Virus record (IMG/VR): IMGVR_UViG_3300015371_000027 | Span: 3,072 to 67,071 of that record | Source of the DNA: a virus | Length of the DNA stretch: 64,000 bases | Strand: one strand, 5' to 3' | In this document: one piece after another, positions 1,497 to 60,809 of the stretch | Layout of the letters: the number at the start of each line of letters is the position of its first letter | Numbering within the stretch: position 1 is the first letter of the stretch | Made by a program: the position numbers and the translations under genes | The notes under the pieces: model-generated | What the model was told of the DNA's origin: nothing | Seen by the model: only the letters and a program-made list of their open reading frames with translations | Databases searched by the model: none

Positions 1497-2876
1497 TTAT
1501 GTAAACGTCGCTGTCCCTCCAGAAGTAGAGAGATTTTTACAGGTCTTTACAACCCTATTACCAGTGCTGTCCTGCTGATAAGTAAACTCCCAATTACCAC
1601 TCCCTTTCTGCACTAATCTGCCGATAGTAAATTTAGCATCTGTAGCTATAGTAGCAGGAGAAGACCAAGTATCTGCACTATTATTATATATTGCAATAGA
1701 CCAGGTTTTACCAGATTTACTATATATTAAAGCAACAGGAAATGATAAACTACCTAACGCTCCTGCTCTCTCATATACTAATATATCTCCAGAGAAAGGT
1801 AACGTTGTCAAAGTCCAAGTCCTCCCTCTATCTCTGGAAGTAGCTTTATAGCCTGTCGTTCCTCTTCTATAGAAGACCTGTAATGTGTGTTTACCTAACT
1901 CAAATATTCTGGGTTGATGACACGTAGTATTAGTGTCTATAACTACCGACCTATCTAATGTTCCGTCACCCTTATATGTTCTAAACGAGATTTTATGTGT
2001 ATCCCAATCATCTACTTCATATTTATGTTTATCAAATTCACTATACAGAACATCTATCATTCCAGGCTCAGGGCTAGGGTCCCACGGTCCTCCATCAGAC
2101 CACCAGAAATATATAGTATGGGTAAGATGATAATGATACATCCTCCCAACAGCATCATTATTCTGATCATATATATCACTCGTATCGTAATCCCATCGTA
2201 GTTTTTCTTCACACTCTTCATTATAAGCTAATTCTTTACACCAAATGGAATGGTGCTGATAGCCGTCAGAAGTATAGTAAGGTACAGTAGCGCTTGGAGA
2301 TATAGTTCCATTTCCATTAAACTCGTAATCAAGAGTCATCTCATCAATTGTTTTACTATAACCTCCATCTACCTGTATAGCACCTTCAGCAAAAAATTCA
2401 CTTATAACAAAAATTGTTTTATCAGTTAGATTATTTTTATATCTAGCAGTCCATAATTCCTCTGCTGAAACAACACTACCGTCGTCATTATCATAACCAG
2501 CACTATGAACCCTGGTTGCTATAGTACCAGAAGTACTATCAAAAAGATCAGCACCTTCAAGCTTATACACTACTAGATTTGCAGACCAGTTATAACCTTC
2601 ACTACCAATACTAGGCGTACCCATTCTTACTGATACTGCAAAATCACTAGGCGTATCACTAGGTAATATTCTAGCATTAAGTTCATGTGGTAAATAAGTA
2701 TAACCTAAAGTGTCGCCAAAATACTCTGTAACAGAGTAAAAATATCCTGTAAAAAATACTATTAATATAACACCCGCTTCTAGTACTCCCACATTTACTG
2801 TTAATGTATCTGCTGTTGGATAGCTATCTCCATAATACTCTACTGCCCCTATTCTAGTTAATGTATACTGAGGCAT
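1497..2876 (-). CDS. Putative minor tail / tail tip protein
   Basis: 459 aa, beta-rich T/S/Y/G composition, directly after tape measure. Confidence 0.55.
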   Translation of the reverse strand: MPQYTLTRIGAVEYYGDSYPTADTLTVNVGVLEAGVILIVFFTGYFYSVTEYFGDTLGYTYLPHELNARILPSDTPSDFAVSVRMGTPSIGSEGYNWSANLVVYKLEGADLFDSTSGTIATRVHSAGYDNDDGSVVSAEELWTARYKNNLTDKTIFVISEFFAEGAIQVDGGYSKTIDEMTLDYEFNGNGTISPSATVPYYTSDGYQHHSIWCKELAYNEECEEKLRWDYDTSDIYDQNNDAVGRMYHYHLTHTIYFWWSDGGPWDPSPEPGMIDVLYSEFDKHKYEVDDWDTHKISFRTYKGDGTLDRSVVIDTNTTCHQPRIFELGKHTLQVFYRRGTTGYKATSRDRGRTWTLTTLPFSGDILVYERAGALGSLSFPVALIYSKSGKTWSIAIYNNSADTWSSPATIATDAKFTIGRLVQKGSGNWEFTYQQDSTGNRVVKTCKNLSTSGGTATFT

Positions 2877-2879
2877 AGA

Positions 2880-5800
2880 TTACCTCGCATACATAGGACT
2901 AGAGGATTGCTGTCTGGCAATCATATTCAACCACTCTTGGAATGTCTTCCAGAGCTGAGCCTGTGTAGCATTAGGATCGAGCGTAATTTGGAATACAACA
3001 GGACGACCTAAAGCTTCTCTATTAGCCATACGTTTCGCTTCATTATTACTCTGTTCAGTATGAGAATCTATATATCCTAACTGGTTATAGACACTCATCA
3101 TATCTCTTCTATTAAACGCTCCTCCTAACGGTCCTCCACCCAACGTTCTCATTCCACGTCTATTCATCCCCATTGCTTCGAATATTTCTCTTCTAGTTTG
3201 TTGAGCTTCCGTTCTTCGTCGTTCTGCTTCTAGCTCCGTCTCTCCAGAAACAGCTTGCATCATATCCTTATAACGCTCCATAAGAACTTTAACAAGACCG
3301 CGTTCTCGTTCTCTAGGATTAAGGAAAGGATTAGCCTTAATAGCTTCTTCCTGCGTTTTAGTCCTCTGAATAAGAAGGTTATGCTGATCCTCGGCTGTTT
3401 TCTTTGCTTCTCTTTCTGCCTTCTTCTGATTCTCTTCTCGTTCCTTTATAGCATCTATCTGGATATTAGATATCTCTCCCTCTAACTTCCAGTAATCATT
3501 AGCAACTTTATTATATTCTTCCGTTCCTGCTTTAAGTCTCTGCGCCTTATTAAACAGAAATTCTTGCTCATTCTTAAGAACAGGAATTAAAACTTCTGCT
3601 TCTGCTTGCTTCTTTACATCATCTTTTGCTGAATTTACCCTAGCTTTAGCTTGTTCTCGTAGGGCATCAAAATATGAATCTGTATCCCTCCTCTGCTGAT
3701 CTACAATCTTCTTATTATTCTGTTCTCTTTCCTTTTGTCCTCTTCCCAGAAGATCATAAGCTTCTCTTTCCTTCTCGTATCCTTCCTTTTGTAGATCGTT
3801 ATACTCCTGTGCATCATCTTTATTAGTTTTGATGGTAGGAAGTAAAGCCTTCATTCGATCTTTAATTTCTTTTATTCGCTTTTGAAGGAGAGGGATTTCT
3901 ACTGCTGCCCTGGCTTGATCCTGTTGATCGTCGGCAAACCTGGCAACCATCGCTTCAGCTTGAGCAGCCATCGCCTCTCTTTGCGTTTGATTAATCTTAT
4001 CTTGCTTTTCTTTACTCTTCTTTATATTTTCCTTTTGTTCGTTCTCTGCATCCTGCTGAAGCTTCTGGAGTTTGGTTTTCTCTTCAAAGAACTCGCCAAT
4101 AGTTTTATTAACTTCCTGTGCTGCTTTTGCATCTGTTTTCGCATCTTTATAAAGTCTGTCGCCTTCTTTTTTCAGATACTCCATACGCTCTTTTATAATA
4201 GGAGCATATGCTTTATATTCTTGTTGCGCTCTAGTATCTTCATCTCCAGAAATAGTAGACTCAGCTATAGATAAACTAGTCCTATATCGACTATCCTGAA
4301 TTCTTCGCTTTTCTTCTTCGTCAAATACATCCTGCACTTGCTTAGCAGCCGCAGCCGCTTTAGCTCTGGAAGCAGGAGTTCCCTCTCTAGCAATTCTCGC
4401 CTGTACTTCATTCTTTGCTTCATCAGCTTGTTTTTGTGCCCATTCTTCATCCTGTTTAGCAGCAACACCGGGCCATAATCTACGAGGATCAAGATTTCGC
4501 CACCAATCACCAGGAGTTCTTTTTGGGTCTAAACCTTGCTGATTTCTTTCATGCCCTTCCACAAACCATTCTGATACCACCGGAGCAGCCATAGCAGCTA
4601 ACACATACGGGTTAGTCATCATAGGTCCAATTTTAGGACCTGCTAGACTAGCGAGCATTAGATAATTAAGAGCATTACTGCCCGCTCCTTTTATCTGCCC
4701 CGATACACCCCCATCGGGCAGCATGCCTAATGCCATTTGTCCGCCGAGGATAGCTCCAAACCCACCTATACCACCACCAAGCCAACCACTAACAGCACCT
4801 TTTACTTTTTGCCATGCAGTTGCAGAAGTAGTAGCCGCTTGAACATTAGCAGTAGCAACAGCAGCAGCAGAAGCTACTCCAGCAGCAGTAGTAGAATTCA
4901 AACTAGCTCTTCTTAAAGCTAATTCTTCGTCTATAGCGAGACGCTTTATTTGTAATTCTTCTTTTGTAATCTTTCCTTCTTGCGCGAGACGATCTAACTC
5001 GAAATTCTTATTCATAGCTGCTTCGTCTGCAAGAGTTTGCTTAAATTTTAACACAGCATCTTCTGTCTTAGCTGTGTTAACAGTAGAAGCTACTACTACT
5101 TCTTCCGCTCCCGCAACCTGATTAGCTTGTAGCCTTTCTACATTTGCAGTAGTTTGCGCTACTCTTTGTCTCTGTAAAACAACTCTATTATTAGCTTCAT
5201 CCACTGCTCTTTGCGCTGAACGTGCTTCATTCATTTCTACTTCAGCACGCTTAGTCATAGCTATCTCATCAGCAAGTTCTTTTTCTTTAAGCTTTAACTC
5301 TGCTTCCAGTTCTACTTTTCTGGAAGTAGCTATAGCTTTATCTTCTTGTGTTCTCTTAAGAGTAGCTGCTTTATTGTCCGCATCTCGCTTTGCAAAATCT
5401 AATCGCCGCTGTGCCTCTACAATTTTGGATTGTTCTTTGGCAGCCTCGGCAGTAATTAATGTTTCTTTAGCTTTCTCTTCCTTAAAAAGAGCCTGCTCTA
5501 AAGTTAGCTCTTGCTGTTTTTCCCGTAATCCAATAGTTTCTATACCTCTGGAAGCAACTTCTATACTTCCAGAAATACTTCCTACCCGCCGCTGTAATCT
5601 ATCAACACCTGGACCGCCACCTTGCTGAGCCATTCGCTGAGCGATTTGCTCTTTTTCAATTGCTGTCTTCTGTAACTCTTTTGCTCTATATTCAGCTACT
5701 TCTAGATTATTAACAGCAGTTCGATGGGTAAGTAAAGCATTTTCTAGACGAATAGAATTATTAATTCTATCCTGTTCGGCTTTCTGTTTTGCTTCATCAC

Positions 5801-6770
5801 CAGAGCGGTCGTACATAAATCTCTGGTAAGCAAGAGATACAAGCTGAATTTGACCGATAAGGTGAATAACAGGACCCGCAGCCGCAGCAACTAAACCCAA
5901 ACCACCAACTAAAGCCTGAATAGGAACAGGGAGTTTAGCAAATAAATTCCCCATTAATTCCAAGCCAGGATTAATTATTTTCAGAAATTGGGTAATAGCT
6001 GGTAGAGCGGTTTGTCCTATTGCAGCCGCAGCCTGATTAACAGAGTCCTTAAAGTTATCGAACGCATTCCTCGCAGTATCCATAGGAGCACGAGGCATTT
6101 TCTGCATACGTTCGACAAGCCTATCCATTACCTGCTCAACAGATAGACCTAATTCCTTAATCTTCTTAGCAGGATCATCTCCATACTGCTCTTTTAGTAG
6201 ACTGAAGATTTGAGGCATACGACGAGAAGTTTCTCTCAATTCTCTTTGAGAAACTACTCCTGCGCTCATCATCTGCTGAACATTAACCATTACTTCATAA
6301 AGGTCTTCCTTCTGCCCACCCGCCAAAGCGATGGCATTAGAGAATTCCTTCATATATCCAGCAGCTTTTTGTGCGCTCAAACCTACAGATTCTAACCTAA
6401 CCGCTCCCTGAATAGCCTCCTCGAAACCAATACCAGGGAGTTTAGCTAACTCCCTCAATTCCTTAAATTGTTTATTAGCTGCTTCAGCACTGCCTGCATT
6501 TATTTTAAGAGCCTGCGTTAAACTCTCAAATCTAGTAGCAGTATTAATAGCAGCAGTACCTAACGCAACGAGGGGAACCGTTAACCCAAAGGTTAACGCC
6601 TCCCCCGCGCGTCTTAGAACTAGCGACTCATTATAGAGTTCGCGCAGTTTAGCTTTTACATCCTCGGATGTTCTCCCTACGGATTTGAGATTATTATCGA
6701 AGTTCCTAATTACACTCGAAGCGTTATCATTTGCTGTTATATTAGCATTTAATGTAGCGTCGGAAGCCAT
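2880..6770 (-). CDS. Tape measure protein
   Basis: 1296 aa; N-terminus ITANDNASSVI...GEALTFGLTVPLVALGTAAINTATRFE typical of TMPs; long Ala/Glu/Lys coiled coils; follows tail chaperones. Confidence 0.92.
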   Translation of the reverse strand: MASDATLNANITANDNASSVIRNFDNNLKSVGRTSEDVKAKLRELYNESLVLRRAGEALTFGLTVPLVALGTAAINTATRFESLTQALKINAGSAEAANKQFKELRELAKLPGIGFEEAIQGAVRLESVGLSAQKAAGYMKEFSNAIALAGGQKEDLYEVMVNVQQMMSAGVVSQRELRETSRRMPQIFSLLKEQYGDDPAKKIKELGLSVEQVMDRLVERMQKMPRAPMDTARNAFDNFKDSVNQAAAAIGQTALPAITQFLKIINPGLELMGNLFAKLPVPIQALVGGLGLVAAAAGPVIHLIGQIQLVSLAYQRFMYDRSGDEAKQKAEQDRINNSIRLENALLTHRTAVNNLEVAEYRAKELQKTAIEKEQIAQRMAQQGGGPGVDRLQRRVGSISGSIEVASRGIETIGLREKQQELTLEQALFKEEKAKETLITAEAAKEQSKIVEAQRRLDFAKRDADNKAATLKRTQEDKAIATSRKVELEAELKLKEKELADEIAMTKRAEVEMNEARSAQRAVDEANNRVVLQRQRVAQTTANVERLQANQVAGAEEVVVASTVNTAKTEDAVLKFKQTLADEAAMNKNFELDRLAQEGKITKEELQIKRLAIDEELALRRASLNSTTAAGVASAAAVATANVQAATTSATAWQKVKGAVSGWLGGGIGGFGAILGGQMALGMLPDGGVSGQIKGAGSNALNYLMLASLAGPKIGPMMTNPYVLAAMAAPVVSEWFVEGHERNQQGLDPKRTPGDWWRNLDPRRLWPGVAAKQDEEWAQKQADEAKNEVQARIAREGTPASRAKAAAAAKQVQDVFDEEEKRRIQDSRYRTSLSIAESTISGDEDTRAQQEYKAYAPIIKERMEYLKKEGDRLYKDAKTDAKAAQEVNKTIGEFFEEKTKLQKLQQDAENEQKENIKKSKEKQDKINQTQREAMAAQAEAMVARFADDQQDQARAAVEIPLLQKRIKEIKDRMKALLPTIKTNKDDAQEYNDLQKEGYEKEREAYDLLGRGQKEREQNNKKIVDQQRRDTDSYFDALREQAKARVNSAKDDVKKQAEAEVLIPVLKNEQEFLFNKAQRLKAGTEEYNKVANDYWKLEGEISNIQIDAIKEREENQKKAEREAKKTAEDQHNLLIQRTKTQEEAIKANPFLNPRERERGLVKVLMERYKDMMQAVSGETELEAERRRTEAQQTRREIFEAMGMNRRGMRTLGGGPLGGAFNRRDMMSVYNQLGYIDSHTEQSNNEAKRMANREALGRPVVFQITLDPNATQAQLWKTFQEWLNMIARQQSSSPMYAR

Positions 6771-6775
6771 TTTTA

Positions 6776-6988
6776 TTAGCCCTGTAATGGACTCGTCTCT
6801 CTTAAAACATCACATTCTAATAAGAGTAGAGCCATCGTTTTGTAGTATATGGGTTTAGTTCTCAATTCCCAGGGAGCAACACCTAAAGCTTTAGCAGCCC
6901 GAAAGAGGTCAACGTTAGGAGGACATTCTCCTGACATTCCCTTTGTTACGTAAAACTCCCTCCATCGGTCTGCTTCTTCGGGTTTGGG
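6776..6988 (-). CDS. Tail assembly chaperone, -1 frameshift extension (gpT-like)
   Basis: ORF 6776..7015 is the -1 frame of 6946..7296; in-phase slippery heptamer C CCA AAC at 6988-6982. Confidence 0.7.
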   Translation of the reverse strand, partial: PKPEEADRWREFYVTKGMSGECPPNVDLFRAAKALGVAPWELRTKPIYYKTMALLLLECDVLRETSPLQG

Positions 6989-27291: not shown

Positions 27292-27346
27292 ATATGTAAA
27301 ACATATGTAAAACATATGTAAAACATATGTAAAACATATGTAAAAC
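27292..27346. repeat. Tandem repeat (ATATGTAAAAC) x5
   Basis: Five perfect 11-bp units read directly. Confidence 0.97.
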
Positions 27347-38031: not shown

Positions 38032-38097
38032 TTCCCTCGTGCTCAGGTAGCTTATTTCCTTTCAGAAATAAAGAGCGTTCGAATCGCTCCGAGGGAA
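38032..38097 (+). ncRNA. tRNA-like element 6
   Basis: TTCCCTCG/CGAGGGAA; GCT-CAGGT-AGC; TTATTTC-CTTTCA-GAAATAA; GAGCG-TTCGAAT-CGCTC. Confidence 0.8.
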
Positions 38098-38149
38098 TGC
38101 TCCCTATTAACAATAGAGTTAATGGGAGTATGTGCCAGGAGAAGGATAA

Positions 38150-48333: not shown

Positions 48334-48769
48334 TAAGGACACAGATTATTGGTCTCATACAGAAGTTGATATTAGAGTTAATGCTGTTAACTGTATGGGA
48401 GTAATGGGAAAAGGTATTGCTCTAGAATTCAAGAAGCGATATCCTGGCATGTATTACGATTACTTAACTAGATGTAGTAAGAGAGAGATAGAGCCCGGCG
48501 GTATTCTTGCCTATAGAAAGGAAGATGTACACATACTTAATGCTGTTACTAAGTATAAATGGCAGGAGCCATCTAAGTATTTATGGATCGCATTAATAGC
48601 TTGCGGGCTTAAACATTATCTATCTATTCATCCAGATAAAAAAGTAGCTCTACCAGCATTAGGATGTGGTAATGGTGGACTTAAGTATGAGGTAGTAAAG
48701 GAGATAATAATAGACGAACTCAACGATAGTTGTGCAGATATTCTACTATTTCCTCCTTGGAGCAAATGA
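48293..48769 (+). CDS. Macrodomain (DarG/Poa1p-like ADP-ribose hydrolase)
   Basis: VNAVNCMGVMGKGIALEFKKRYP and ALPALGCGNGGL signatures. Confidence 0.9.
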   Translation: MNRGDIKVSVREVSKDTDYWSHTEVDIRVNAVNCMGVMGKGIALEFKKRYPGMYYDYLTRCSKREIEPGGILAYRKEDVHILNAVTKYKWQEPSKYLWIALIACGLKHYLSIHPDKKVALPALGCGNGGLKYEVVKEIIIDELNDSCADILLFPPWSK

Positions 48770-48980
48770 ATAAGATGTTAAATAAGACGACGAAACTATC
48801 GTTGATGGAAGAGATGATTATAAATGATCTTAGCGAAGGCAAGCATAAAGAAACTATCTCTAGTATAAGAAAAGGTATGCCGGAACATATCTCTGATAAC
48901 CTATCGGATGTAGAAATAGTAATGGTTATGGTTCTTTTTGTAAAAGATCTTAAAGAGAGAGCGCAAAATAGAACATCGTT

Positions 48981-49331
48981 ATGAAAAAGCTTGCCTTTAC
49001 AGGACATAGAAATAAGTTAGCTAACCCAGACGATCTACGAATAGCTACCTATAAGTATAGAGGTTATGAATGGGTACACGGAGGTGCAAAAGGATTTGAT
49101 ACACAAGTAGATAATCTCGCTAAAGAACTCGGCGTAAAAGTTACAGTTATCCGACCGGACTATGAAAATAACCCGCCTAAAATAGCACCTCTACTTCGTA
49201 ATCACGATATAGTAAAAGGAGCTAAACTATTAATTGCTCTTTACGATGGACGAAAAGGAGGCGGTACGTTATACGCAATTAACTTTGCTAAAAAATCAGG
49301 CGTTCCTGTCCATATTATAATTCCCGAGTAA
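48981..49331 (+). CDS. YspA/DUF2493 SLOG-family protein
   Basis: FTGHR...VHGGAKGFD...APLLRN...YDGRKGGGTLYAI. Confidence 0.82.
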   Translation: MKKLAFTGHRNKLANPDDLRIATYKYRGYEWVHGGAKGFDTQVDNLAKELGVKVTVIRPDYENNPPKIAPLLRNHDIVKGAKLLIALYDGRKGGGTLYAINFAKKSGVPVHIIIPE

Positions 49332-49335
49332 CTAG

Positions 49336-50694
49336 ATGATACAGGAATACTGTAAAGGTCCTTTACTTCTCTACCAGGGAGATTTTAACGAACTACAAGA
49401 AGGAGTAGAGAGTTCTGTAGTAGACGCCTGCGTATGCGATCCTCCCTATGTCCTTACCTCTAACGCTAGATATAAGCCTGGACAACAACCTACTAAAACT
49501 ACAGCAGGACAATATAAACGTTTAGCTAAAGGTTTTATGGGAGAATCCTGGGATGGATCGGATGTAGCCTTTAAGAAAGAAACCTGGGAAAATGTATGGC
49601 GGCTTATTAAGCCCGGTGGTTATCTACTTGCTTTCGGCGGGCGTCGCACATTTCATCGTATGGTTGTCGCAATCGAAGATGCAGGATTTAAGATCAACGA
49701 TTTTATAGTCTGGGGGTTTTACTCAGGATTTCCTAAGTCGCATAACTTCCCTCTTGATATAGATAAATTAGAAGGAGTAGAGTCGGAAGAAAACGAGAGG
49801 CGGGTATATAACAACTCTGGAATGAAGTTTGCTCTAGCAGATAACGGTGGATATAATGATCCAAAAAAAGTAGGAACGTTAGTTAAGTTAAAGCAAGCTA
49901 CTTCTTCCAGAGCTAAGGAGTGGGCAGGGTGGGGGACCGATCTCAAACCCTGCTTCGAGCCGATATGTGTAGCCCAAAAACCTCTGGAAGAAAAGACGTA
50001 TGCGAAGAATGTCCTTCGCTTCGGAACAGGAGGAATGAATATAAATGGAACGAGAATCTTCCGAGAAGGTAAGGAGGCTGGTTGGCGATCTAGCGGTGCA
50101 GATGGTAGAAAAGGATTCCATAGAAAAGGATTTGTTATCAGAGAGAGAAGTAGAGATGATATTGCGACCAGAACTTCTGTGGGAAGCTATTGGCCGGGAA
50201 ACTTTATCCTCGGAACCCCTGCCGAAATTCTGGAAGAACAGTTAAAGATAAAAGATTACCTTCTCTGTCTAGAGTATCCTACTCCCTTTATATACTGTCC
50301 GAAGACGACACCTAAGCAAAGGGATATAGGATTATCTTCCAGAGATAGTGTAGAGGTTTATCGGGCAGGACACGGTAATAAAGAAGAGGATGATGTAACA
50401 AAAAGATTTAGGACTCAAGTTAAGAACGGGCATCCGACTGTAAAACCTCTTAACTTAATGCGTTATCTTGTTAGATTAGTATGTCCTACAGGCGGAGTAA
50501 TCCTCGATCCTTTTATGGGTTCAGGAACGACAGGCTGCGCTTCTATCCAAGAAGGTATGCACTTCGTAGGTTTCGAGCTAATAGAAAGCTTTTTCGATTT
50601 ATCGAAGGAAAGAATAAACTACTATTATAAACAGCAAATCGCTGCGTACAGGTCAATAGAATGTCTAAACAAAAGGAGCGGAAAATCTTCATAA
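49336..50694 (+). CDS. DNA amino-methyltransferase (N6-A/N4-C, beta class)
   Basis: DPPY near N-terminus; HPTVKP and LDPFMGSGTT near C-terminus. Confidence 0.93.
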   Translation: MIQEYCKGPLLLYQGDFNELQEGVESSVVDACVCDPPYVLTSNARYKPGQQPTKTTAGQYKRLAKGFMGESWDGSDVAFKKETWENVWRLIKPGGYLLAFGGRRTFHRMVVAIEDAGFKINDFIVWGFYSGFPKSHNFPLDIDKLEGVESEENERRVYNNSGMKFALADNGGYNDPKKVGTLVKLKQATSSRAKEWAGWGTDLKPCFEPICVAQKPLEEKTYAKNVLRFGTGGMNINGTRIFREGKEAGWRSSGADGRKGFHRKGFVIRERSRDDIATRTSVGSYWPGNFILGTPAEILEEQLKIKDYLLCLEYPTPFIYCPKTTPKQRDIGLSSRDSVEVYRAGHGNKEEDDVTKRFRTQVKNGHPTVKPLNLMRYLVRLVCPTGGVILDPFMGSGTTGCASIQEGMHFVGFELIESFFDLSKERINYYYKQQIAAYRSIECLNKRSGKSS

Positions 50695-51486: not shown

Positions 51487-52090
51487 TGAGTTAATGGAAT
51501 GGAAGAAGTGTACTGAATGCGAAATAGGTAAGACCGCATATAGGCATGTTCTATTTGATACCATTCCTAGACGAAAACATAAAGTGGATATCCTATTTAT
51601 AGGAGAAGGTCCAGGGCAATCAGAAAATACAATAGGTCGTCCATTCGTAGGAAGATCGGGACGACTATTACGGGCCGCTATTAGAAGCGCGAATGAGGAT
51701 ATAGAGCTAGATATAGGTATAGCTAATCTAGTAGCTTGCCGCCCGTGTGATACAATTAGCTCGGGCAACCGACCACCTTCCGACGAAGAGGTTAAAAACT
51801 GCAAAGATAGGCTGCATCTAACTATAAAGCTACTAGAGCCTAAAGTTATAGTAGCTCTAGGTAATGTGCCCGGAAGATGGGTAGAAACCTTTAATAAGGA
51901 ATGGTTACTAACATATCATAAGCTATATCATCCCTCTTTTGTATTGAGAAATGGAGGTACGGGAGGAGTTATGTATAGTAAATATGTAGAGGATATAAAG
52001 GATATTTTAGAAAATGTTAGTAAAGAAAAAGAAAAGTCTGCCGATAATCGAACCTCCATCCCCTCCCTCCGAGTTTTGGAATCTCTATAA
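51467..52090 (+). CDS. Uracil-DNA glycosylase family 4
   Basis: CTEC, FIGEGPG..E...GRPFVGRSG, CRP...NRPP..EE..C, YHPS. Confidence 0.92.
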   Translation: MQKDIFDELMEWKKCTECEIGKTAYRHVLFDTIPRRKHKVDILFIGEGPGQSENTIGRPFVGRSGRLLRAAIRSANEDIELDIGIANLVACRPCDTISSGNRPPSDEEVKNCKDRLHLTIKLLEPKVIVALGNVPGRWVETFNKEWLLTYHKLYHPSFVLRNGGTGGVMYSKYVEDIKDILENVSKEKEKSADNRTSIPSLRVLESL

Positions 52091-53066
52091 AGATGGAGTA
52101 ACTAAATCGTTTATAGAGAGGCTGCTGTCCTGTCCCGAGAAGGGCAGACTAATGATGGTAGAAGGTCTACAGAGTAACGGCTTTCGTCATGCGTTAGAGT
52201 TCGGTAATATTATACATGATGCTCTGGACAAATTATATACCCACGCAAAAGAAACTAAAGTAATTAAATGGGACGTAATGCTAAATCTTGTTCCAGAAGT
52301 GATGAAGGGCATAGAAGCAGAGCAAATAGCGAAGCTAAACTCATTATCTGTTACTCCCCCTTCTTCTCATGAAAATCTGGAAGAGATGTTAGCGGTTGCA
52401 GAAGTACTTCTGGAAGGATACTTCCTTAACTATAAAAGAGATTATAAGAAGTTTAATTGGGTATTTCTGGAAAAGGAGTTTGCTGTTAGGTTCCTTCCCC
52501 GAATATCTCTTGGTGTAGATAGGGACCCTATATGGGTTAGAGGAAAATGGGACGGCGTGTTTCAAACTGAAGGGCAGTTCGACCATCTATGGTTGTTCGA
52601 AACAAAAACGAAGGGGCGAATAGAGCACGATAATATCCTAAGCAAGCTTCATTATGACCTACAGGTTATGCTTTACCTCTGGGCGCTTAGAGCGCAAACA
52701 GGTTATACTCCTAGAGGAGTAGTGTATAATATTCTTCGTCGCCCCATGCATGAGAGAAAGAAGGCAGAGTCACTTCCAGAATTCGCGCAGCGCATTAAAA
52801 AGGACATTAAGAGCAGGCCAGAACATTTCTTCGTAAGGTTCGATGTAAGAATAAATCTCGATGATATGAAGAAGTGGGAAGAGGAGTTTAACAGAATAAT
52901 GCTCTTTGTCATAAGGTGGCATGATGGAGATTACAGATACAAGAACTCCTCTGCTTGTGTCGATGGATTAGGACCCTGCGAGTTCTTACCTATCTGTTCA
53001 AGAGGAGATATGTCCTATTACGTAAAGCGAGAGACTTGCTTTCCAGAATTAAAAGGGCATGAGTAA
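52014..53066 (+). CDS. Cas4/RecB-like PD-(D/E)xK exonuclease
   Basis: CP..., FGNIIHDALD, RGKWDG, FETKT, QVMLY, C....GPCEFLPIC. Confidence 0.85.
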   Translation: MLVKKKKSLPIIEPPSPPSEFWNLYKDGVTKSFIERLLSCPEKGRLMMVEGLQSNGFRHALEFGNIIHDALDKLYTHAKETKVIKWDVMLNLVPEVMKGIEAEQIAKLNSLSVTPPSSHENLEEMLAVAEVLLEGYFLNYKRDYKKFNWVFLEKEFAVRFLPRISLGVDRDPIWVRGKWDGVFQTEGQFDHLWLFETKTKGRIEHDNILSKLHYDLQVMLYLWALRAQTGYTPRGVVYNILRRPMHERKKAESLPEFAQRIKKDIKSRPEHFFVRFDVRINLDDMKKWEEEFNRIMLFVIRWHDGDYRYKNSSACVDGLGPCEFLPICSRGDMSYYVKRETCFPELKGHE

Positions 53067-55731: not shown

Positions 55732-55976
55732 TGTCTAAAAGTCGTACTCTTTATACATTAAAAGCTGGACTTAATCAGGGTAATGTTATATATGTAAAGA
55801 AGTCCGAACTCCCTGTGATTAAGAAGTATGAGAAGTTCTTAAAGCGTAAACCAAAGATGTTATCTCTGGATAATAGAGGTAGACCTAAATATAGTGAGAA
55901 GGACGAGAAATACATTAAAGCCGACCCGGAGTTACTAGCTTATGTAAAACGACTAGGAGTTCAATTAGATGAGTAA
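55716..55976 (+). CDS. Hypothetical basic protein
   Basis: 86 aa coupled ORF. Confidence 0.5.
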   Translation: MGRCLMSKSRTLYTLKAGLNQGNVIYVKKSELPVIKKYEKFLKRKPKMLSLDNRGRPKYSEKDEKYIKADPELLAYVKRLGVQLDE

Positions 55977-56409
55977 CCGTAATTATATGCTAGATATAAT
56001 AGCCGAATTCGATGAAAAGAAATATAAATGTAAACCTACCAAAACTAGACTGACTAAAAAGCAGATTCTAGAGATTAGAAGTTTCTCTCCAGAGATAACC
56101 GATACAGTTCTCTCTCGCAGATATAAAGTCAACAGGCATTACATAGGCAGGATTCGTAGAGGACAAGAACGTAAGAATATCGGCGGAAAGGTTATCAGGC
56201 GATTAAGAGTTTATGGTGGTAGTTCAGGCGAGTTTCGCAAACTTCGTTATAGATTAGAGCTAACTCAAAAGGAACTCGCAAAGATAATGCATGTGTGTAT
56301 ATACACTATAGTTAAATACGAATCAGGAGTTTGTCCCATTCCGCTATATAGATGGGAGAAAATAAATGAGCTTGTTCAATCCAAAGAAGCTTCTAGTAAT
56401 AGACACTGA
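55969..56409 (+). CDS. Double HTH protein (C-terminal XRE-type)
   Basis: LTKKQILEIR...LSRRYKVNR and LRYRLELTQKELAKIMHV...VKYESG. Confidence 0.75.
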   Translation: MSNRNYMLDIIAEFDEKKYKCKPTKTRLTKKQILEIRSFSPEITDTVLSRRYKVNRHYIGRIRRGQERKNIGGKVIRRLRVYGGSSGEFRKLRYRLELTQKELAKIMHVCIYTIVKYESGVCPIPLYRWEKINELVQSKEASSNRH

Positions 56410-58498
56410 ATGCTCAGGTTTAAGACCCTGGCATGGGGATATGCCTTTTGCCTTTCCTCTGTGTGATGAAAATGGAAACAAGAAGTATATAGAATGGGAT
56501 GTTGATCCTATCTCCAGAATTCCTATCGCCAAACCTGATGAACTGGAATTTCTGAAAGAGATAATGGATAGTAAAATACCGAAGGTCTTCTTCAACGCAA
56601 AATATGACGTGCGTATGATGGCGACCTTCGGTATATTTGTCCGAGGCTATATACACGATGTTTCTATCGCCGCTAGGATAAGCTACACATTAGAGCTAGT
56701 CAACGCTCTGAAGCCTCTTGCCTGGAAGTACGCCCGGTATCCTATGGACGACCAGAAGGACCTACAGAAAGCAGTTAATCACTGTAGGAGGATAGCAAAG
56801 AAAGAGTTAGGATGGAATATAGGCTCTAGCCCGGCTATGGATTACTGGTTGCCTAGAGCCTTACATAAAGCGGGCTATCCTGTCGATCCTAAAGCCTGCT
56901 CCCGATATGCTTTAGGAGATGTAGAAAGAACTCTGATCCTTCATTATATGTATAAGGAGATAATGGAAAATGATCCATATCTTCTCAATACGTATAGAAT
57001 GGAAATGGAGGAGCTATGGCCCATCGTATATAAGATGGAGGAGAGAGGCATACGTATTCATCCAGAGATAGCGAAGGCAAAGCAGAAAGAGCAGGGAGAA
57101 ATTCTGGTAAGAGAGTTAGCAGAGATAAGGAGATTGGTAGGTGATCCGAAGTTTAACCCTAACTCTCATATACAATTAAAGAAGAAGCTGTTCGGTCCTA
57201 AGTCCGAAGGTGGTCTAGAGTTACCGATCCTTAAATACACTACCAGTAAAAAGAAGCGCGGAGCTAAGGTTAAGACAGATAACCCGTCTACCGAAGCTGA
57301 TATCTTAAAGAAGTTTGTAGATACTCCTCTCGTTCGCCATATTCTATACTTCAAATCTGCTTCACATTCCAAGAGTCAGTTCTTCGATAAGATCAATGAA
57401 CTAATGGTTGCTGATATAAACCATTACGTTTATTGTATTCACCATAATCTCCAGCAATGTGATACGGCAACGGGCCGCACGTCCTCTAGAGACCCTAACC
57501 TACAAAACCAGCAGAACGCCGACACAAGCGCCAAGAGCTTCGTAGCTGTTCAGACGCGAGATTGCTTCGGCCCGCGCCCAGGTTATGTATGGATTAAGAT
57601 AGATTGGGCGCAACAAGAGATTAGAATCTTTGGAGAATGTGCTAATATCCAGAGCATCTACGATGCTGCTATCTCTGGAAGAGATATTAATGATGATAAT
57701 ACTAACCTCGCCTGGGGCGGTAAAGATAATCCTTATGCTCTACAAGCCGCCGCTTACGCTCTAGAGTTAGGAAATACAGAGATAGTTGAACGAGCAGAGC
57801 AAATACATAAAGATAAAGTTCTAATCTCTAATCTCTGGAAAGAACTAGGATGGTCTAGAAAACACGTTGAGAAGTATGGAGCATCAAGTGATGCAGCCTT
57901 CACCATTGCAGATGAGTGGCTTTCCAGATTTGACTATGATATTGTTAAAGCTGAAAAGAGTATTGGTAAAAAGGCTAGTCGAACCAGGGCAAAGAACTGC
58001 TTTTATGCCAAGATTTACGGAGGTGGTGCTGAAGCAGTTATGTATATGCTTTACTGTCCCAGAGATGAGGCAGCAGAGTTCTTATCCCAATTCGATGATA
58101 TTTTTCCTGGGATTAACAGGTATTCCCGTTACCTCTCGAACAAAACGAAACGCGATGGTTTTGTCATTACTAAATACGGACGGAAGCTTAGTGTTGACCC
58201 TGATTTTGCGTATCGCTCCGTTAATTATGAAGTCCAGGGCACCGCTGCTGATATGTGTAAACGGTCGATTATTCGATGTGACTCAAAGATTAAGGAAGTC
58301 GGATGGGACGCCCATATTCTATTACCTGTCCACGATGAGTTAATATTCGAAGTGAAGGAAGGACAGGACGATCTGGAGTTCTGTCGAACAATGGCTAACA
58401 TAATGAGAGATACAGAAGGTCGCCTGGAAATCCCTATGGAAGTAGAGGTTACTAGGGCTAGAACGTACTGGCATGAGAAAGAAGAAGTAAAAATATAA
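56366..58498 (+). CDS. polA: Family A DNA polymerase with 3'-5' exonuclease
   Basis: IDTE, NAKYD, YALGD exonuclease motifs; TGRTSSRDPNLQN; motif A DWAQQEIR; motif B RTRAKNCFYAKIYG; motif C VHDEL. Confidence 0.95.
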   Translation: MSLFNPKKLLVIDTECSGLRPWHGDMPFAFPLCDENGNKKYIEWDVDPISRIPIAKPDELEFLKEIMDSKIPKVFFNAKYDVRMMATFGIFVRGYIHDVSIAARISYTLELVNALKPLAWKYARYPMDDQKDLQKAVNHCRRIAKKELGWNIGSSPAMDYWLPRALHKAGYPVDPKACSRYALGDVERTLILHYMYKEIMENDPYLLNTYRMEMEELWPIVYKMEERGIRIHPEIAKAKQKEQGEILVRELAEIRRLVGDPKFNPNSHIQLKKKLFGPKSEGGLELPILKYTTSKKKRGAKVKTDNPSTEADILKKFVDTPLVRHILYFKSASHSKSQFFDKINELMVADINHYVYCIHHNLQQCDTATGRTSSRDPNLQNQQNADTSAKSFVAVQTRDCFGPRPGYVWIKIDWAQQEIRIFGECANIQSIYDAAISGRDINDDNTNLAWGGKDNPYALQAAAYALELGNTEIVERAEQIHKDKVLISNLWKELGWSRKHVEKYGASSDAAFTIADEWLSRFDYDIVKAEKSIGKKASRTRAKNCFYAKIYGGGAEAVMYMLYCPRDEAAEFLSQFDDIFPGINRYSRYLSNKTKRDGFVITKYGRKLSVDPDFAYRSVNYEVQGTAADMCKRSIIRCDSKIKEVGWDAHILLPVHDELIFEVKEGQDDLEFCRTMANIMRDTEGRLEIPMEVEVTRARTYWHEKEEVKI

Positions 58499-58559
58499 GT
58501 CAGGCCGCTTATAGGGCGTAATAAAGGATACCCTAATGATAAAACAGAGGTAGGCAGTA

Positions 58560-60809
58560 ATGCCGAAATCTAAAGTAGATAGAAACTATCTTCCAGTATT
58601 TGAGAAGCTAGGATTTGATCCTGTAGGAGAATCAGGAGGAAATCATTATGGCGACTGTCCCTTCTGCGGAAAGTCAAATAAGTTTTACGTTAACAGAACA
58701 ACAGGACAATACCAGTGCAAATCTGCGTCTTGCGGTAGTGAAGGGAATATCTATAACTTCCTTAACCAGAGCTATGAAATGCTATGGGAGAATCATGCTT
58801 CGTTCCCCTGGGAGGACTTATCCGAACACAAGAATATTTCTGTAGAACTCCTTAAACATCATGGTCTAGTATACGAACATGGGCAATGGATTATACCAGT
58901 TCGTAATGAGAAAGGAACGATGGTAAATCTCCTATTCTATGATCCTCAGGCTAAGAAACCGAAGCCTATGGGGTTAACAGGAATGGGACAATACCTTATC
59001 GGGCTAGACCTATTACATAAATACGATCCAAAATGTCCGATATACTTAACCGAGGGAAAATGGGATCAGATATGTTTGCAGGAATTATTAGGAACAAAGG
59101 GAGTTGCGATAGGAGTACCAGGAGCTAACTCTTTCAGAGATGAATGGATCAAACCCCTGGAAGGTAGGAATGTTGTTATCTGTTATGATAACGACATAGA
59201 TGGGGAGAAAGGAGGAACGAAGGCTGCTAGTAAACTCTTGAATATCTGTCCTAAAGTTAAGAAGATATACTGGCCCGAAGGATTACCCGACGGGTTTGAT
59301 ATACGAGACTTCTATAAATCAGGACAGCCTCTCAAAGAGTTAAAGAAGTTCATCAAGAAGTTTCGTCCAGAAGATGATCTATCTCTGGAAGAAGTAGCTG
59401 AAGGTAATCCTATAGATGAATACCCTCTGCTCTCTTCCGGTAAGAGACCACCTCTGGAAGAAATAATAGACATATATAGAAAGTATCTCTTCTTTACCCA
59501 AACCCTTATAGACGCTCTGCGTTGTATATTCGCAGTAGTCATATCTAATCAATTAGAGGGATGCCCATTATGGTTATTCATTGCTGGACCGCCCGGATAT
59601 GGGAAAAGCGAGCTACTAACTTCTACTTCAGAAGTAACCTGCTGCGTCAACAGATCGACGGTAAGTCGTCCTACGTTAGTATCAGGATGGAAGGTCGGGA
59701 AAGACCCTAGCCTTATCCCTAAACTTATAGGGAAAACCCTGATACTTAAGGACTTCACCGAAGTTCTACAGATGGGTAAACAACAAAAGGAAGAAGTATA
59801 TGCTGTTCTCCGAGGGGCATTTGATGGTAAAGTAGAGAGAGATTTTGGCTCCGGTATTATGAGAGAATACACGGGTCAATTTACTATGGCAGCAGGTGTT
59901 ACGAATGTTCTCTTTGCGGAAAGTAATACTACAATGGGAGAGCGGTCATTAACATTTCGCCTTCCAGAGATGAACTCGGAGCACGAGAACATCCTGATTA
60001 CTGCCGCCATATCCAATTCTGGAAAGCAAGTAATGATGAAAGAGGTACTCCATAAAGCGGCTAAATCTTTCTTAGAGTATAAGATAAAGGAAGAGGATTA
60101 CCCATTAATACCAGTAGATTATGTCTTAAAGATCGTAGCTCTTTCCAGAGTTGTCGCCTACCTTCGGGCGGCGGTAGATCGGGACCCGTATAAGGACACT
60201 ATTTTATATCAGCCCATGCATGAGTTAGGGAGTAGGATTGCTATACAGTTACATAAATTAATGGTAGCACTTGCTCTCCAGAGATACCCGGCAGAGGTGA
60301 CAGAAGATGACTTTCGCGTAATAAGAAAAGTAGCTCTAGATAGTTGTTCGGAATGGAACCTTAAGATCATTAATGTGTTAGTAGAGAGAGATGGTCTAGA
60401 CCTTAATGAGATAGCTAAATTACTCGCTACTCCTAAAACAACGGTTAAGCTACATGTGGATGATCTAGTTCTCCTTAAGGTTATAAGAGTCGAGACACAT
60501 AAAACAGGAGAGATAGGTCGTCCTGTTAGTCATTATTACCTGGAAGAAGAGATTAAAGATTTATGGGTAAAAGCGGGATTCGAAATTAAAACTACCGCTC
60601 CTATAGAAGTAGAAGTTAAGAATGATCTTAACGGGCATGTTACTCCTATAGAGCCTATTACTTTAGCGAAGAAATTTAAGATTAAGAAGAAGGTCAACCC
60701 TAATGGCAATCACACACCCGAACCCGATAACTCTGGAAGAAAAGATAACCAGGCTCCAAGAATTAGAATCAAAAGGATGGATAAAGGATTTAGAAAGAAT
60801 AAGATTTGA
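58560..60809 (+). CDS. Primase-helicase fusion (Zn finger, TOPRIM, AAA+ ATPase, wHTH)
   Basis: CPFC..CKSASC; TEGKWD; YDNDIDG; GPPGYGKS; ILKDF; C-terminal HTH. Confidence 0.85.
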   Translation: MPKSKVDRNYLPVFEKLGFDPVGESGGNHYGDCPFCGKSNKFYVNRTTGQYQCKSASCGSEGNIYNFLNQSYEMLWENHASFPWEDLSEHKNISVELLKHHGLVYEHGQWIIPVRNEKGTMVNLLFYDPQAKKPKPMGLTGMGQYLIGLDLLHKYDPKCPIYLTEGKWDQICLQELLGTKGVAIGVPGANSFRDEWIKPLEGRNVVICYDNDIDGEKGGTKAASKLLNICPKVKKIYWPEGLPDGFDIRDFYKSGQPLKELKKFIKKFRPEDDLSLEEVAEGNPIDEYPLLSSGKRPPLEEIIDIYRKYLFFTQTLIDALRCIFAVVISNQLEGCPLWLFIAGPPGYGKSELLTSTSEVTCCVNRSTVSRPTLVSGWKVGKDPSLIPKLIGKTLILKDFTEVLQMGKQQKEEVYAVLRGAFDGKVERDFGSGIMREYTGQFTMAAGVTNVLFAESNTTMGERSLTFRLPEMNSEHENILITAAISNSGKQVMMKEVLHKAAKSFLEYKIKEEDYPLIPVDYVLKIVALSRVVAYLRAAVDRDPYKDTILYQPMHELGSRIAIQLHKLMVALALQRYPAEVTEDDFRVIRKVALDSCSEWNLKIINVLVERDGLDLNEIAKLLATPKTTVKLHVDDLVLLKVIRVETHKTGEIGRPVSHYYLEEEIKDLWVKAGFEIKTTAPIEVEVKNDLNGHVTPIEPITLAKKFKIKKKVNPNGNHTPEPDNSGRKDNQAPRIRIKRMDKGFRKNKI

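Follow-up and report, generated by a model that had tools for sequence, protein, structure and literature searches.

A dispersed, asymmetric DNA word is under selection in a phage clade and is inherited with its replication module

The genome of an uncultured phage is interspersed with copies of an asymmetric word, CTTCCAGAGATA, a cis-acting signal in the DNA that is under positive selection and is inherited together with the replication module. What matters is the number of copies across the genome, and not the placement of a few regulatory ones. The word is a lineage trait of a phage clade and its sites are under purifying selection; the lineage keeps it at about one copy per kb, at the cost of codon choice in essential genes, and its form drifts with the lineage. 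The sequence analysed here, referred to as the window, is a stretch of 64,000 nucleotides that covers bases 3072-67071 of a phage contig of 67,071 bp, the completeness of which is estimated at 65%.

Abundance and Distribution of the Word

The exact 12-mer occurs 14 times in the window, seven times on each strand, against an expectation of 0.07 and a maximum of 1 in 100 dinucleotide shuffles. The initial annotation had located these copies by eye and judged that fewer than one would be expected by chance; all 14 start positions match exactly, and the shuffles agree with the estimate. When up to two mismatches are allowed, the family tttYC-TTCCAGA-R-n-T has 82 matches on the two strands of positions 1-64000, compared with 9.4 expected and at most 17 in the shuffles. 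For the whole contig, expectations were taken from an order-2 Markov model applied to both strands. The core TTCCAGA, dozens of variants of which had already been noticed, is present 111 times (25.2 expected), CTTCCAGA 69 times (6.9 expected), and the 10-mer TTCCAGAGAT 35 times (0.6 expected).

A codon-preserving null, which the initial annotation had suggested as a check, does not account for this excess. Shuffling synonymous codons inside genes (19,456 codons, 200 shuffles) leaves 4.4 copies of the 12-mer (maximum 6) where 14 are observed, 9.8 of the 10-mer (maximum 15) against 35, and 42 of the 7-mer (maximum 52) against 111. Copies survive the shuffle because they are mainly intergenic and were left unshuffled. 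For intragenic 10-mers, 17 sense copies are found against 1.2, and 10 antisense copies against 0.7, an enrichment of about 14-fold in each orientation. The early suggestion that the DNA itself is the target of selection is upheld, as against the encoded proteins: the enrichment outlasts the codon shuffle in both orientations, the word leaves its imprint on unrelated proteins as xSSRDx peptides, and the copies in polA lie on conserved peptides by codon choice and not by insertion.

Coding sequence holds 27 of the 35 10-mers and intergenic DNA the remaining eight. The coding copies are distributed over sense frame 2 (12 copies), sense frame 1 (five) and the three antisense frames (10 together), so the word does occur in both orientations, in several frames and between genes, as first described. 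The coding strand of the phage is purine/pyrimidine-skewed. Spacing is Poisson-like across the whole genome and both of its arms (CV 0.98). Only 4/35 10-mers are situated 0-40 nt upstream of a start codon, others being intragenic; the exact 12-mers are intergenic in five of 14 cases, compared with 14% of the genome (p = 0.04). The orientation bias in this phage is weak (21 sense and 14 antisense; p = 0.3), and no clean positional polarity of the sites was found along its genome.

Most exact copies are embedded in open reading frames. Sense copies lie on the minus strand at 1829-1840 (ORF 1497-2876) and on the plus strand at 36776-36787 (close to the start of ORF 36736-37353), 42541-42552 (ORF 42198-42677), 44113-44124 (ORF 43941-44762) and 50336-50347 (the DNA methylase gene, 49336-50694). 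Antisense copies, all on the minus strand, lie at 43383-43394 (ORF 42711-43595), at 57670-57681 in polA, where the word covers the conserved peptide SGRD, and at 59380-59391 in the primase gene. A copy at 17563-17574 (minus strand, sense) is intergenic, between the portal gene and an 832-aa ORF. Copies upstream of starts are found at 23989-24000 (minus strand, 11 nt before a likely ATG and with a Shine-Dalgarno-like AAGGGG), 29945-29956 (plus strand, 11 nt before the ATG of ORF 29968-31059) and 34206-34217 (plus strand, 21 nt before the ATG at 34239). The last two exact copies belong to tRNA-shaped elements and are described below.

Between the two divergent arms of the genome there is an origin-like region (27292-27641) with an 11-bp unit repeated 5.3 times, palindromic arrays of the AGTACT type, and a 21-bp unit repeated 2.2 times. 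A one-mismatch word on the bottom strand (27279-27290) adjoins these repeats on the left. To the right, in the main control region, two one-mismatch words CTTCCAGAAATA on the top strand (27797-27866) have the same orientation and enclose a 46-bp AT-rich stretch.

Form of the Word and Its Inheritance

The logo of the family is asymmetric and not palindromic, with at least 10 informative positions. Its information content is about 14 + 4.5 bits, with a core of 7-8 nt and some 4.5 additional bits outside the core. In the sites of word-bearing genomes CC-AGAR is invariant, and it is preceded by a 5' pyrimidine tract: four out of four positions are pyrimidines at 17-40% of sites in eight word-bearing genomes, and at 0-12% of sites in three relatives that lack the word.

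Relatives were found with the family A DNA polymerase (polA, 56366-58498, plus strand) as a marker. At 33-40% PolA identity and 42-59% GC, they have their own variants of the pyrimidine tract followed by CCAGAR. The most overrepresented k-mer is a CCAGA variant in all five whole relatives, and the variants track phage relatedness, each relative having its own. Within a PolA clade with a support of 0.99 (GC 42-58%), YYCCAGARA is enriched 4-fold or more in each of the seven members; with the pattern reversed as a control, relatives have 0-2 matches, compared with 19-25 for the word. Between two relatives, 17 of 21 aligned sites are retained, as opposed to 29% of random 9-mers (p = 1e-6). When strong sites of six genomes are pooled, sense copies outnumber antisense ones by 79 to 37 (68%, p = 1e-4).

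In two relatives, G001 and G003, the best copies form part of an element of about 28 nt, GCGGAG-N6-8-CTCYCCAGAAGATGGGCC. This element is mostly located outside open frames, is co-oriented with the genes and lies 8-40 nt upstream of starts; some copies are arranged as convergent pairs that give hairpins.

Outside the clade the word was met only at background level. None of 401 sampled Bacillota genomes has more than 13 copies of the 11-mer, and counts of the 10-mer and 11-mer are at background in these and in six other genomes sampled. Among the matches listed for a 14-mer (at least 116 viral and at least 120 genome stretches), all are single copies except one double, which belongs to a MAG that is not enriched overall (five copies in 1.5 Mb); no multi-copy genome is present among the genome stretches listed.

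The genes common to the relatives are only the SNF2-family helicase (46870-48333, plus strand), which lies within the shared replication/recombination core, a RuvC-like protein, the PD-(D/E)XK exonuclease (52014-53066, plus strand), an AAA_24/Sak4-like protein, PolA and the DNA primase (58560-60809, plus strand). PolA and the primase were matched in 10 of 10 related records and the other four in nine, with none of the four in fragment G010.

tRNA-Shaped Elements Carrying the Word

Seven elements of the phage with a T-arm of at least 4 bp resemble tRNAs in their cloverleaf and GTTCRAWYC T-loop. They depart from the canonical 5-bp anticodon stem and 7-nt loop, having stems of 7-11 bp and loops of 6-16 nt. 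The cloverleaf is the minimum free energy (MFE) structure in four of the seven (z -2.3 to -4.0). In five of the seven, the word (up to two mismatches) is found within 40 nt on the 5' side of the T-arm, where 0.36 would be expected (p = 4e-5). The word is thus carried in the anticodon arm by five of the seven tRNA-shaped elements.

All of the elements located here are on the plus strand. In 32395-32475 (z -4.0) the word makes up the 15-nt anticodon loop and the 3' stem. In 33346-33449 (z -2.3), with a 10-bp anticodon stem, the exact word at 33404-33415 (plus strand) occupies the loop. In 34916-35002 (z -3.2), ARAGORN calls a 12-nt 'intron' that is the complement of the word, corresponding to the exact minus-strand copy at 34948-34959 in the anticodon-arm loop. 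The 6-nt loop of 38032-38098 (z -3.3) goes with a two-mismatch variant, CTTTCAGAAATA, and 39693-39768 carries the complement of a one-mismatch variant, its MFE structure not being a cloverleaf (z -0.4). A tRNA-like element at 29809-29908, where TTCCAGAG adjoins the T-arm, is a weak call obtained only at a lowered ARAGORN threshold; at default settings, ARAGORN makes a single odd call in the phage. An Rfam scan of the elements gave nothing at gathering score, the best match being tRNA-Sec (E = 1.7).

It is conceivable, if improbable, that the word works at the RNA level, with tRNA-shaped RNAs whose enlarged anticodon loop displays the word, or the complement of it, and pairs with the copies in transcripts. 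Apart from the excess of word-bearing elements, such a role would fit the presence of both polarities, the 12-nt complementarity between the loops of 33346-33449 and 34916-35002, and the AAATA variant common to 38032-38098 and 39693-39768. Against it, word-bearing relatives lack such elements (a strict T-arm search of five related records found one, and ARAGORN with introns found none in G001, G002, G005, G009 and G010), and flank-swap folding shows that the word has no general hairpin context.

Candidate Readers of the Word

The initial annotation had put forward two candidate binders, an HTH ORF (55969-56409) and a Lys-rich 462-aa ORF (40476-41864). Neither has a tblastn relative in the 10 whole related records, and both were rejected as conserved partners. 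The HTH in this phage is a weak match only; no positional HTH was found upstream of polA in 16 loci, and no HTH_3 match in four relatives, two of them complete, although these relatives carry the word. A site driven by methylation had also been suggested, and this was not supported: the methylase (49336-50694), of the N6/N4 type with a large insert, has a homologue in one of 10 records. The N6_N4, D12 and C5 methylase families are absent at E <= 0.001 from two complete word-bearing relatives, and in five word-bearing relatives (two complete genomes) there is no match for PF01555 or PF02086 and none reaching cut-off for PF00145. Tyrosine integrase (PF00589), serine integrase (PF00239) and ParB (PF02195) were not found in the contig (about 65% complete) or in four relatives, two complete; hence nothing in these searches pointed to a temperate lifestyle.

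Tentatively, we propose that the zinc-ribbon/Toprim primase of the phage starts preferentially at the word on a single-stranded template. T7 gp4 and DnaG are primases with a module that reads short DNA words, and by this analogy the primase is the only shared gene with such a module. The zinc ribbon spans residues 25-79 and the Toprim domain residues 161-240; Pfam hits are slightly under cut-offs, and the annotation rests on PHROG phrog_47 (E = 4.5e-25). A primase with a zinc-binding domain is thus encoded and co-inherited. In T7, primase sites combine a 3' recognition part that is not copied with a copied part, and the form of the word, CC-AGAR with a 5' pyrimidine tract, is compatible with this layout. 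If the T7 rule carries over, AGA-R-n-T would be recognised and left uncopied, primer synthesis would begin opposite the invariant CC, and the purine-rich primer (about pppGGAAGRAAA) would be specified by the pyrimidine tract. The identity of the reader, the direction of priming and the sequence of the primer are all inferred. A primase of such long specificity would need sites every 0.6-1 kb on both strands, which selection would create at any position where the encoded protein allows it. With forks that start from the origin-like region, the favoured sense strand would template lagging-strand synthesis; one bottom-strand copy to the left of this region and two top-strand copies to its right agree with such a layout.

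In favour of the primase is the density-dependent behaviour of the word, namely the roughly 14-fold enrichment in both orientations, the Poisson spacing and the codon choice in PolA. The inheritance of the word within the clade, the retention of its sites and the 8-nt primase site on record for phage NrS-1 (PMC8718748) also favour it. Several observations speak against it. Known sites are 3-5 nt, and a word with at least 10 informative positions is longer; the NrS-1 site was later reduced to 4 nt, according to the accessible part of PMC8718748. Relatives G006, G007 and G008 keep a primase homologue and have weak (G006) or no enrichment. Exact copies are overrepresented in intergenic DNA, and the sense bias of this phage is weak. 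The start-proximal, hairpin-forming element of G001 and G003 is not predicted by a priming site, and the tRNA-shaped elements are not explained by it. Since the contig is about 65% complete, the reader could also be a gene outside it.

Two other readings have a weaker but real claim. One is a binding array for a fast-evolving DNA-binding protein of the phage, acting as a stoperator-like roadblock or as an activator of transcription, with high-affinity copies before genes and weaker ones inside them; we regard this as rather unlikely. It would fit an asymmetric word of 12-13 bp that occurs dozens of times over the two arms and has variants that are similar but not identical among related phages, as described for Cluster A stoperators in the accessible part of PMC6550527. 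The intergenic share of exact copies, the mostly non-coding, gene-co-oriented and start-proximal element of G001 and G003, the pair of copies around the AT-rich stretch of the main control region and the pooled sense bias of 68% point the same way. However, neither the HTH and Lys-rich ORFs nor HTH_3 provided a conserved binder in the records searched, integrase and ParB were not found in the phage and four relatives (two complete), and a regulator predicts neither the intragenic majority (27/35), nor antisense enrichment equal to sense, nor random spacing. The stoperator analogy of the initial annotation stands as regards asymmetry, dozens of copies and lineage-specific variants; it falls short on lifestyle genes and probably on strict orientation. 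The other reading, about as doubtful, is a signal of the Chi type. A helicase-nuclease, which may be RecBCD/AddAB of the host or a helicase together with the PD-(D/E)XK exonuclease of the phage, would read it on single-stranded DNA and change over from degradation to recombination, to the protection of the phage DNA. A core of about 8 nt that is dispersed and built through codon choice agrees with this, as do both orientations with about 68-75% of strong sites co-oriented, a benefit that would scale with density, and the recombination module of exonuclease, Sak4-like and RuvC-like proteins common to the relatives. Hosts that differ in GC, such as E. coli and Haemophilus, have similar Chi words. 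Against a Chi-like signal, information extends past 8 nt (in G001 and G003 it covers about 28 nt), the 60-fold enrichment of the 10-mer is far above that of any Chi genome we know of, and the Bacillota sample and the 14-mer matches listed, nearly all single, include no enriched host.

A methylation- or repair-linked bias of the HIP1 kind, acting through the phage methylase, is very improbable. The phage does encode this enzyme, and its gene holds a copy of the word, but homologues are nearly absent from the relatives, as detailed above, and the word is not palindromic. As to a compositional, codon-usage or assembly artefact, the chance is negligible. Only the skew of the coding strand would favour it, whereas the observed counts lie more than 10 standard deviations from each of the dinucleotide, order-2 Markov and codon-preserving nulls, and the reversed-pattern control stays near zero. 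Contigs from three further runs cover parts of a 20-kb stretch, and the pieces listed are free of differences; a fourth run, the best match, may be the sample of the window's own assembly. The initial annotation had named an adapter or assembly artefact, judged unlikely, as one of the things that would undo its claim; this is excluded because ORFs run intact through the copies.

Implications

Chi, uptake sequences, KOPS and stoperators each led to the discovery of a molecular machine that travels along DNA and reads it on the way. If the primase is the reader here, the start-site specificity of a replisome shapes genome sequence, and we know of no earlier case. Nuclease control would make the word a phage-private Chi, and with a regulator as reader, the stoperator principle would also hold for lytic phages and intragenic sites. 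A broader idea, speculative and unlikely, is that these lytic soil phages label their chromosome with a word of about 10-12 nt that is private to the clade and required by its replication/recombination machinery, be it a primase of long specificity or a Chi-like control of a nuclease that the phage encodes. The replisome would by this means tell self from host DNA; the tRNA-shaped RNAs of this phage, displaying the word or its complement in the anticodon arm, would then be decoys or regulators of the same reader. Whichever the reader, the word is a simple sequence handle for spotting phages of this group in metagenomic data and for in vitro tests of candidate readers.

Comparison with Known Systems

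HIP1 of cyanobacteria is a hyper-abundant, short, methylase-linked palindrome inside genes. The phage word is likewise hyper-abundant, short and within genes, but it is asymmetric and has no conserved methylase. The start-associated sequences of Cluster K mycobacteriophages reportedly consist of a conserved word just before many start codons. A few copies upstream of starts in this phage, and the long element found in G001 and G003, are similar to these, in contrast to the 10-mers of this phage as a whole, only 4/35 of which have such a position.

Cluster A mycobacteriophage stoperators, the sites of L5 gp71-type repressors, are also asymmetric (about 13 bp) and present in dozens of copies in both arms. 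According to the accessible part of PMC6550527, they are mostly in one orientation relative to transcription, and each phage has a similar but distinct motif. Here, too, each relative has a motif of its own, and a sense bias is seen in the pooled genomes (79 to 37), though it is weak in this phage (21 to 14). Unlike stoperators, the word is mostly intragenic, the antisense copies make up 30-40% and are enriched to the same degree, searches of the phage gave no repressor, integrase or ParB, and copies are more numerous (35 10-mers, 111 cores).

Chi is a dispersed, asymmetric word of 5-8 nt in coding DNA, overrepresented and replication-skewed in the host chromosome; its strand skew is partial and its benefit depends on density. 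The phage word shares the dispersal, the asymmetry, the embedding by codon choice and the partial skew with the Chi of RecBCD/AddAB; it differs in being probably longer (a core of 7-8 nt with further information outside it), far more enriched and specific to a phage clade, with a reader that is only putative.

The DNA uptake sequences of Neisseriaceae and Pasteurellaceae occur about once per kb in both orientations, leave an imprint on proteins and form hairpins as inverted pairs. Density, orientation and protein imprint are the same for the phage word, and hairpin pairs are found in G001 and G003. Uptake sequences, however, arise in competent bacteria via uptake bias, whereas the carrier here is a phage, and no bacterial genome enriched for the word was found among the genomes sampled and the matches listed.

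Known primase sites include 5'-GTC for T7, 5'-(G/C)GGA for AtTwinkle and 5'-TTTGGTTA for NrS-1 (PMC8718748, PMC5737085). They are 3-5 nt (at most 8 nt), unlike the phage word, and the accessible parts of these sources do not report genome-wide enrichment. Their layout, with an uncopied 3' part and a copied 5' part, fits the word, and the phage encodes a conserved zinc-ribbon primase.

A dispersed word selected at the DNA level

The phage genome carries an asymmetric 12-base word whose occurrence is genuine and far from random; it is under selection as DNA and is common to the phage lineage. All 14 start coordinates given for it in the initial annotation hold exact copies of CTTCCAGAGATA, seven on each strand, where 0.07 are expected. 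When up to two mismatches are allowed, there are 82 matches against 9.4 expected. Counts over the full contig are 111 for TTCCAGA (25 expected), 69 for CTTCCAGA (6.9 expected) and 35 for TTCCAGAGAT (0.6 expected); maximal-order Markov ranking gives no information on such nested words. The logo built from the 111 cores reads t-t-t-Y-C-TTCCAGA-R-a-T-r. Position -1 is C in 69 cores and T in 29, position +7 is G in 61, A in 43 and never C, and position +9 is T in 95 of the 111. The core holds about 14 bits of information, and the positions outside it add about 4.5 bits.

The initial annotation had proposed a codon-preserving shuffle as a check on this excess, and the excess survives it. When synonymous codons were shuffled within each gene (19,456 codons, 200 shuffles), 4.4 of the 14 exact 12-mers were left (shuffle maximum 6), 9.8 of the 35 10-mers (maximum 15) and 42 of the 111 7-mers (maximum 52). 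These residual copies are mostly the intergenic set, which was left unshuffled. Within genes, the 10-mer is found 17 times in sense, compared with 1.2 in 150 shuffles, and 10 times in antisense, compared with 0.7 (also 150 shuffles). Since the enrichment is equal in both orientations, a DNA-level signal is favoured and an mRNA-level signal is disfavoured. Neither codon usage nor protein sequence accounts for the excess.

The gene for the family A DNA polymerase, PolA (56366-58498, plus strand), illustrates how the word is accommodated. Two antisense copies lie over residues that are conserved in relatives (xSGRDx and xLWKELGW), and the alignment is ungapped. For proteins, an origin of the word by insertion or from mini-introns was rejected because these copies align gap-free to conserved residues. 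The word is made through codon choice wherever the protein permits, and not by insertion.

Each 4-kb bin contains 3-11 TTCCAGA cores. Regular spacing was rejected (coefficient of variation 0.98, random range 0.85-1.14), and no KOPS-type positional strand polarity was seen. General presentation in hairpins was also rejected, as real flanks folded no better than swapped flanks in seven of eight tests; the single nominal p was 0.04, and two related genomes, G001 and G003, went in the opposite direction. Strong sites show 21 sense and 14 antisense copies in the phage itself, and 79 sense versus 37 antisense when six genomes are pooled (p = 1e-4). Five of the 14 exact copies are fully intergenic, compared with 14% of the genome (p = 0.04), and a start codon follows within 0-40 nt for only 4 of the 35 10-mers (background 6%). 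Between convergent genes, a hairpin with A- and T-run flanks (62920-62975) resembles a bidirectional terminator and has a one-mismatch copy (62939-62950) in its loop.

Relatives carrying the word

PolA homologues of the phage, with about 33-42% identity, are found on uncultured contigs of 50-88 kb. The degenerate form of the word, YYCCAGARA, is enriched at least 4-fold in 10 of the 16 closest loci, the exceptions being L005, L007, L008, L009, L011 and L016. In the PolA tree, the phage falls in a clade of seven (support 0.99, GC 42-58%), all seven of which are enriched. In all five of the whole related records G001-G005, a CCAGA variant heads the k-mer ranking: TTCTCTCCAGAGA in G002, CCCAGAGAAG in G004, CATCCCCAGAGA in G005, and ATCTCTCCCAGAAGATGG in both G001 and G003. 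In G001, CTCTCCCAGA is present in 24 copies versus 0.2 expected. Among the further whole records, YYCCAGARA is present 19 times in G009 (reversed-pattern control 2) and 25 times in G010 (control 0). Enrichment is only slight in G006, where 12 of the 13 copies share a strand, and is lacking in G007 (1 copy) and G008 (3 copies). The tract 5' of CCAGAR has four pyrimidines out of four at 17-40% of sites in eight word-bearing genomes, and is absent from three others (0-12% of CCAGAR sites). In codon shuffles of the relatives, both orientations exceed the null, with the sense orientation being stronger. Enriched 8-mers of L009, L018, G006 and G008 were rejected as dispersed words, since they are peptide repeats, terminal repeats or local iterons.

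G003 (L094-L098) is colinear with G001 (L089-L093) along its whole length with about 83% identity, which does not bear out the 'provirus' label of G003. Of the 34 CTCCCAGAR sites in G001, 21 fall within ungapped aligned blocks, and 17 of these are identical in G003, compared with 29% for random 9-mers from the same blocks (p = 1e-6). The best word copies of both genomes form part of a longer element, GCGGAG-N6-8-CTCYCCAGAAGATGGGCC, which spans about 28 nt and has about 40 copies per genome. Most of these elements occupy stretches without an open frame. They run in the orientation of the local genes, 8-40 nt upstream of a start codon, and the ATG of the element is sometimes itself the start. 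Some elements are paired, convergent and overlapping, giving long hairpins of about 50 nt. The intergenic and start-proximal copies in the phage are a faint echo of this pattern.

Other words are avoided by some of these genomes. CCAGG and CCCAG are nearly missing from G007 (L102-L104; 0-1 copies versus 74 expected), and GANTC is scarce in G004 (L085-L088) and G010 (L113-L114), with 0-9 copies versus 49-100 expected, which suggests different host restriction systems.

The phage, its samples and its possible host

The window corresponds to bases 3072-67071 of the 67,071-bp contig of a siphovirus-type phage, which CheckV estimates to be 65% complete. The minus-strand arm (1-27.3 kb) encodes the tape measure, major head protein, portal and large terminase. 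The plus-strand arm encodes a SNF2-family helicase, Macro and SLOG domains and an N6/N4 methylase; it also carries genes for a RuvC-like resolvase, a PD-(D/E)XK exonuclease and a Sak4-like AAA_24 protein, and for a family A polymerase, a primase and ThyX, with a minus-strand amidase gene downstream. Upstream of the terminase nuclease-domain ORF (19138-20406), a 612-aa ORF (20834-22672) has a Hint/intein splicing domain (E = 7e-13); the large terminase could be in two pieces or harbour an intein. The adjoining Macro domain, YspA-like SLOG domain and methylase, the last with an insert of about 200 aa, may form an anti-defence or DNA-modification module (48293-50694).

No match was obtained by megablast of 20 kb of the phage against a phage collection or by a single-protein PolA scan of viral contigs, and tblastn of PolA and portal against cultured phages gave only distant matches (<30% identity). 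These searches yielded neither a cultured relative nor a host. Ten sequencing runs contain parts of the stretch, all as contigs; the majority are labelled rhizosphere metagenomes and none is listed as an RNA run. Contigs from four runs compared with the stretch have no microdiversity at word sites.

A 14-mer form of the word was scanned for in viral contigs (at least 116 stretches) and genome contigs (at least 120 stretches); among the matches listed, all but one are single. The one double match is L299, a contig of a Saccharibacteria-labelled MAG (5793-6796), where two exact 14-mers lie 990 bp apart with a third 10-mer nearby. The MAG is not enriched overall (5 copies in 1.5 Mb), so the pair is probably a local repeat. 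Five other genomes have background counts only, and none of 401 sampled Bacillota genomes exceeds 13 copies of the 11-mer. The whole contig under-uses CAAGG/CCTTG (17 versus 88 expected), GATCT (96 versus 222) and CTAAG (88 versus 214), a pattern that resembles avoidance of restriction sites and could be a clue to the host.

The region between the arms and the tRNA-shaped elements

An origin-like non-coding region (27292-27641) lies between the divergent arms. Its repeats are ATATGTAAAAC, an 11-bp unit present 5.3 times, and a 21-bp unit present 2.2 times. AGTACT-type palindromic arrays take up about 100 bp of it and match many miRNA hairpin models, purely because of their shape. Eight consecutive G are found at about 27868. 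The region adjoins a block of small ORFs (28136-34180, about 28-35 kb) with 48-54% GC, compared with 41% for the genome. Within this block, the box TCTCGTCCCT has five exact copies, all on the plus strand and upstream of small ORFs, and 19 copies with up to one mismatch, where 4.5 are expected; its appearance is that of an early promoter or leader box in its own right.

Seven plus-strand elements have a canonical T-arm (GTTCRAWYC), with T-loops at 29612, 29889, 32455, 33431, 34982, 38078 and 39738. The cloverleaf is the minimum free energy fold in four of the seven (z -2.3 to -4.0), and the anticodon arms are over-long (stems of 7-11 bp, loops of 6-16 nt). None of the seven passes Rfam thresholds, and ARAGORN misses them at default settings; at a lowered threshold, it calls a tRNA at 34916-35002, the 12-nt 'intron' of which is complementary to the word. 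In five of the seven, the anticodon arm contains the word or a form of it with up to two mismatches, in either polarity, versus 0.36 expected (p = 4e-5), and in a sixth TTCCAGAG abuts the T-stem. Such elements are absent from the word-bearing relatives, so in this phage they come on top of the system and do not underlie it. One study describes phage tRNAs with anticodon-loop changes that evade host nucleases (PMC10264068), which may offer a context for these elements.

Candidate readers of the word

When all phage ORFs were compared with the ten related records by tblastn, only the SNF2 helicase, RuvC-like protein, PD-(D/E)XK protein, AAA_24 protein, PolA and primase were broadly common. The 146-aa helix-turn-helix (HTH) protein (55969-56409) and 462-aa Lys-rich protein (40476-41864) put forward as binders in the initial annotation have no relatives in the ten records. 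In addition, the 16 PolA loci lack a positional HTH ahead of polA, and HTH_3 finds no match in four relatives. The phage methylase has a homologue in one of the ten, G009, and that of L004 is unrelated to it. Neither N6_N4 nor D12 methylase matches were found in G001-G005, two of which are complete genomes, and no C5 methylase match attained its cut-off in the same set. PDB sequence searches with the primase and exonuclease gave no match.

What the data require is a function tied to the density of copies. It must act on either strand while somewhat favouring one, be passed on together with the replication module, and withstand slow change of the word. T7 and DnaG primases follow rules by which short template words are recognised. 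Among the proteins common to the relatives, the primase (58560-60809, plus strand) alone has a domain known for this; published work bearing on the subject includes PMC2910064, PMC2978363, PMC5737085, PMC6136900 and PMC8718748. The word is tentatively proposed as a start site of the phage primase, the leading explanation but one that is less likely than not. Its layout suits such a role: the 3' part, AGA-R-n-T, would be the uncopied recognition part, primer synthesis would start opposite CC, and the 5' pyrimidine tract would be copied. For forks that set out from between the arms, the lagging-strand template would be the sense strand. Word copies flank this region, one on the bottom strand (27279) and two on the top strand (27797 and 27855). 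Against this explanation stand the length of the word, which is unprecedented, the relatives that have a primase but not the word, the long form found close to starts in G001 and G003, and the tRNA-shaped elements, which it leaves unexplained.

Two other readings each explain a different subset of the facts. That the word is a Chi-like signal seems unlikely. That it is an array of sites for a candidate duplex-binding regulator is about as improbable. Searches of the contig and of G001-G004 detected no integrase, resolvase-type recombinase or ParB, and nothing detected hints at a temperate lifestyle with an immunity repressor. Whether it is read by the primase or otherwise, the word is closest in kind to the known words under genome-wide selection, none of which it matches on their defining features.
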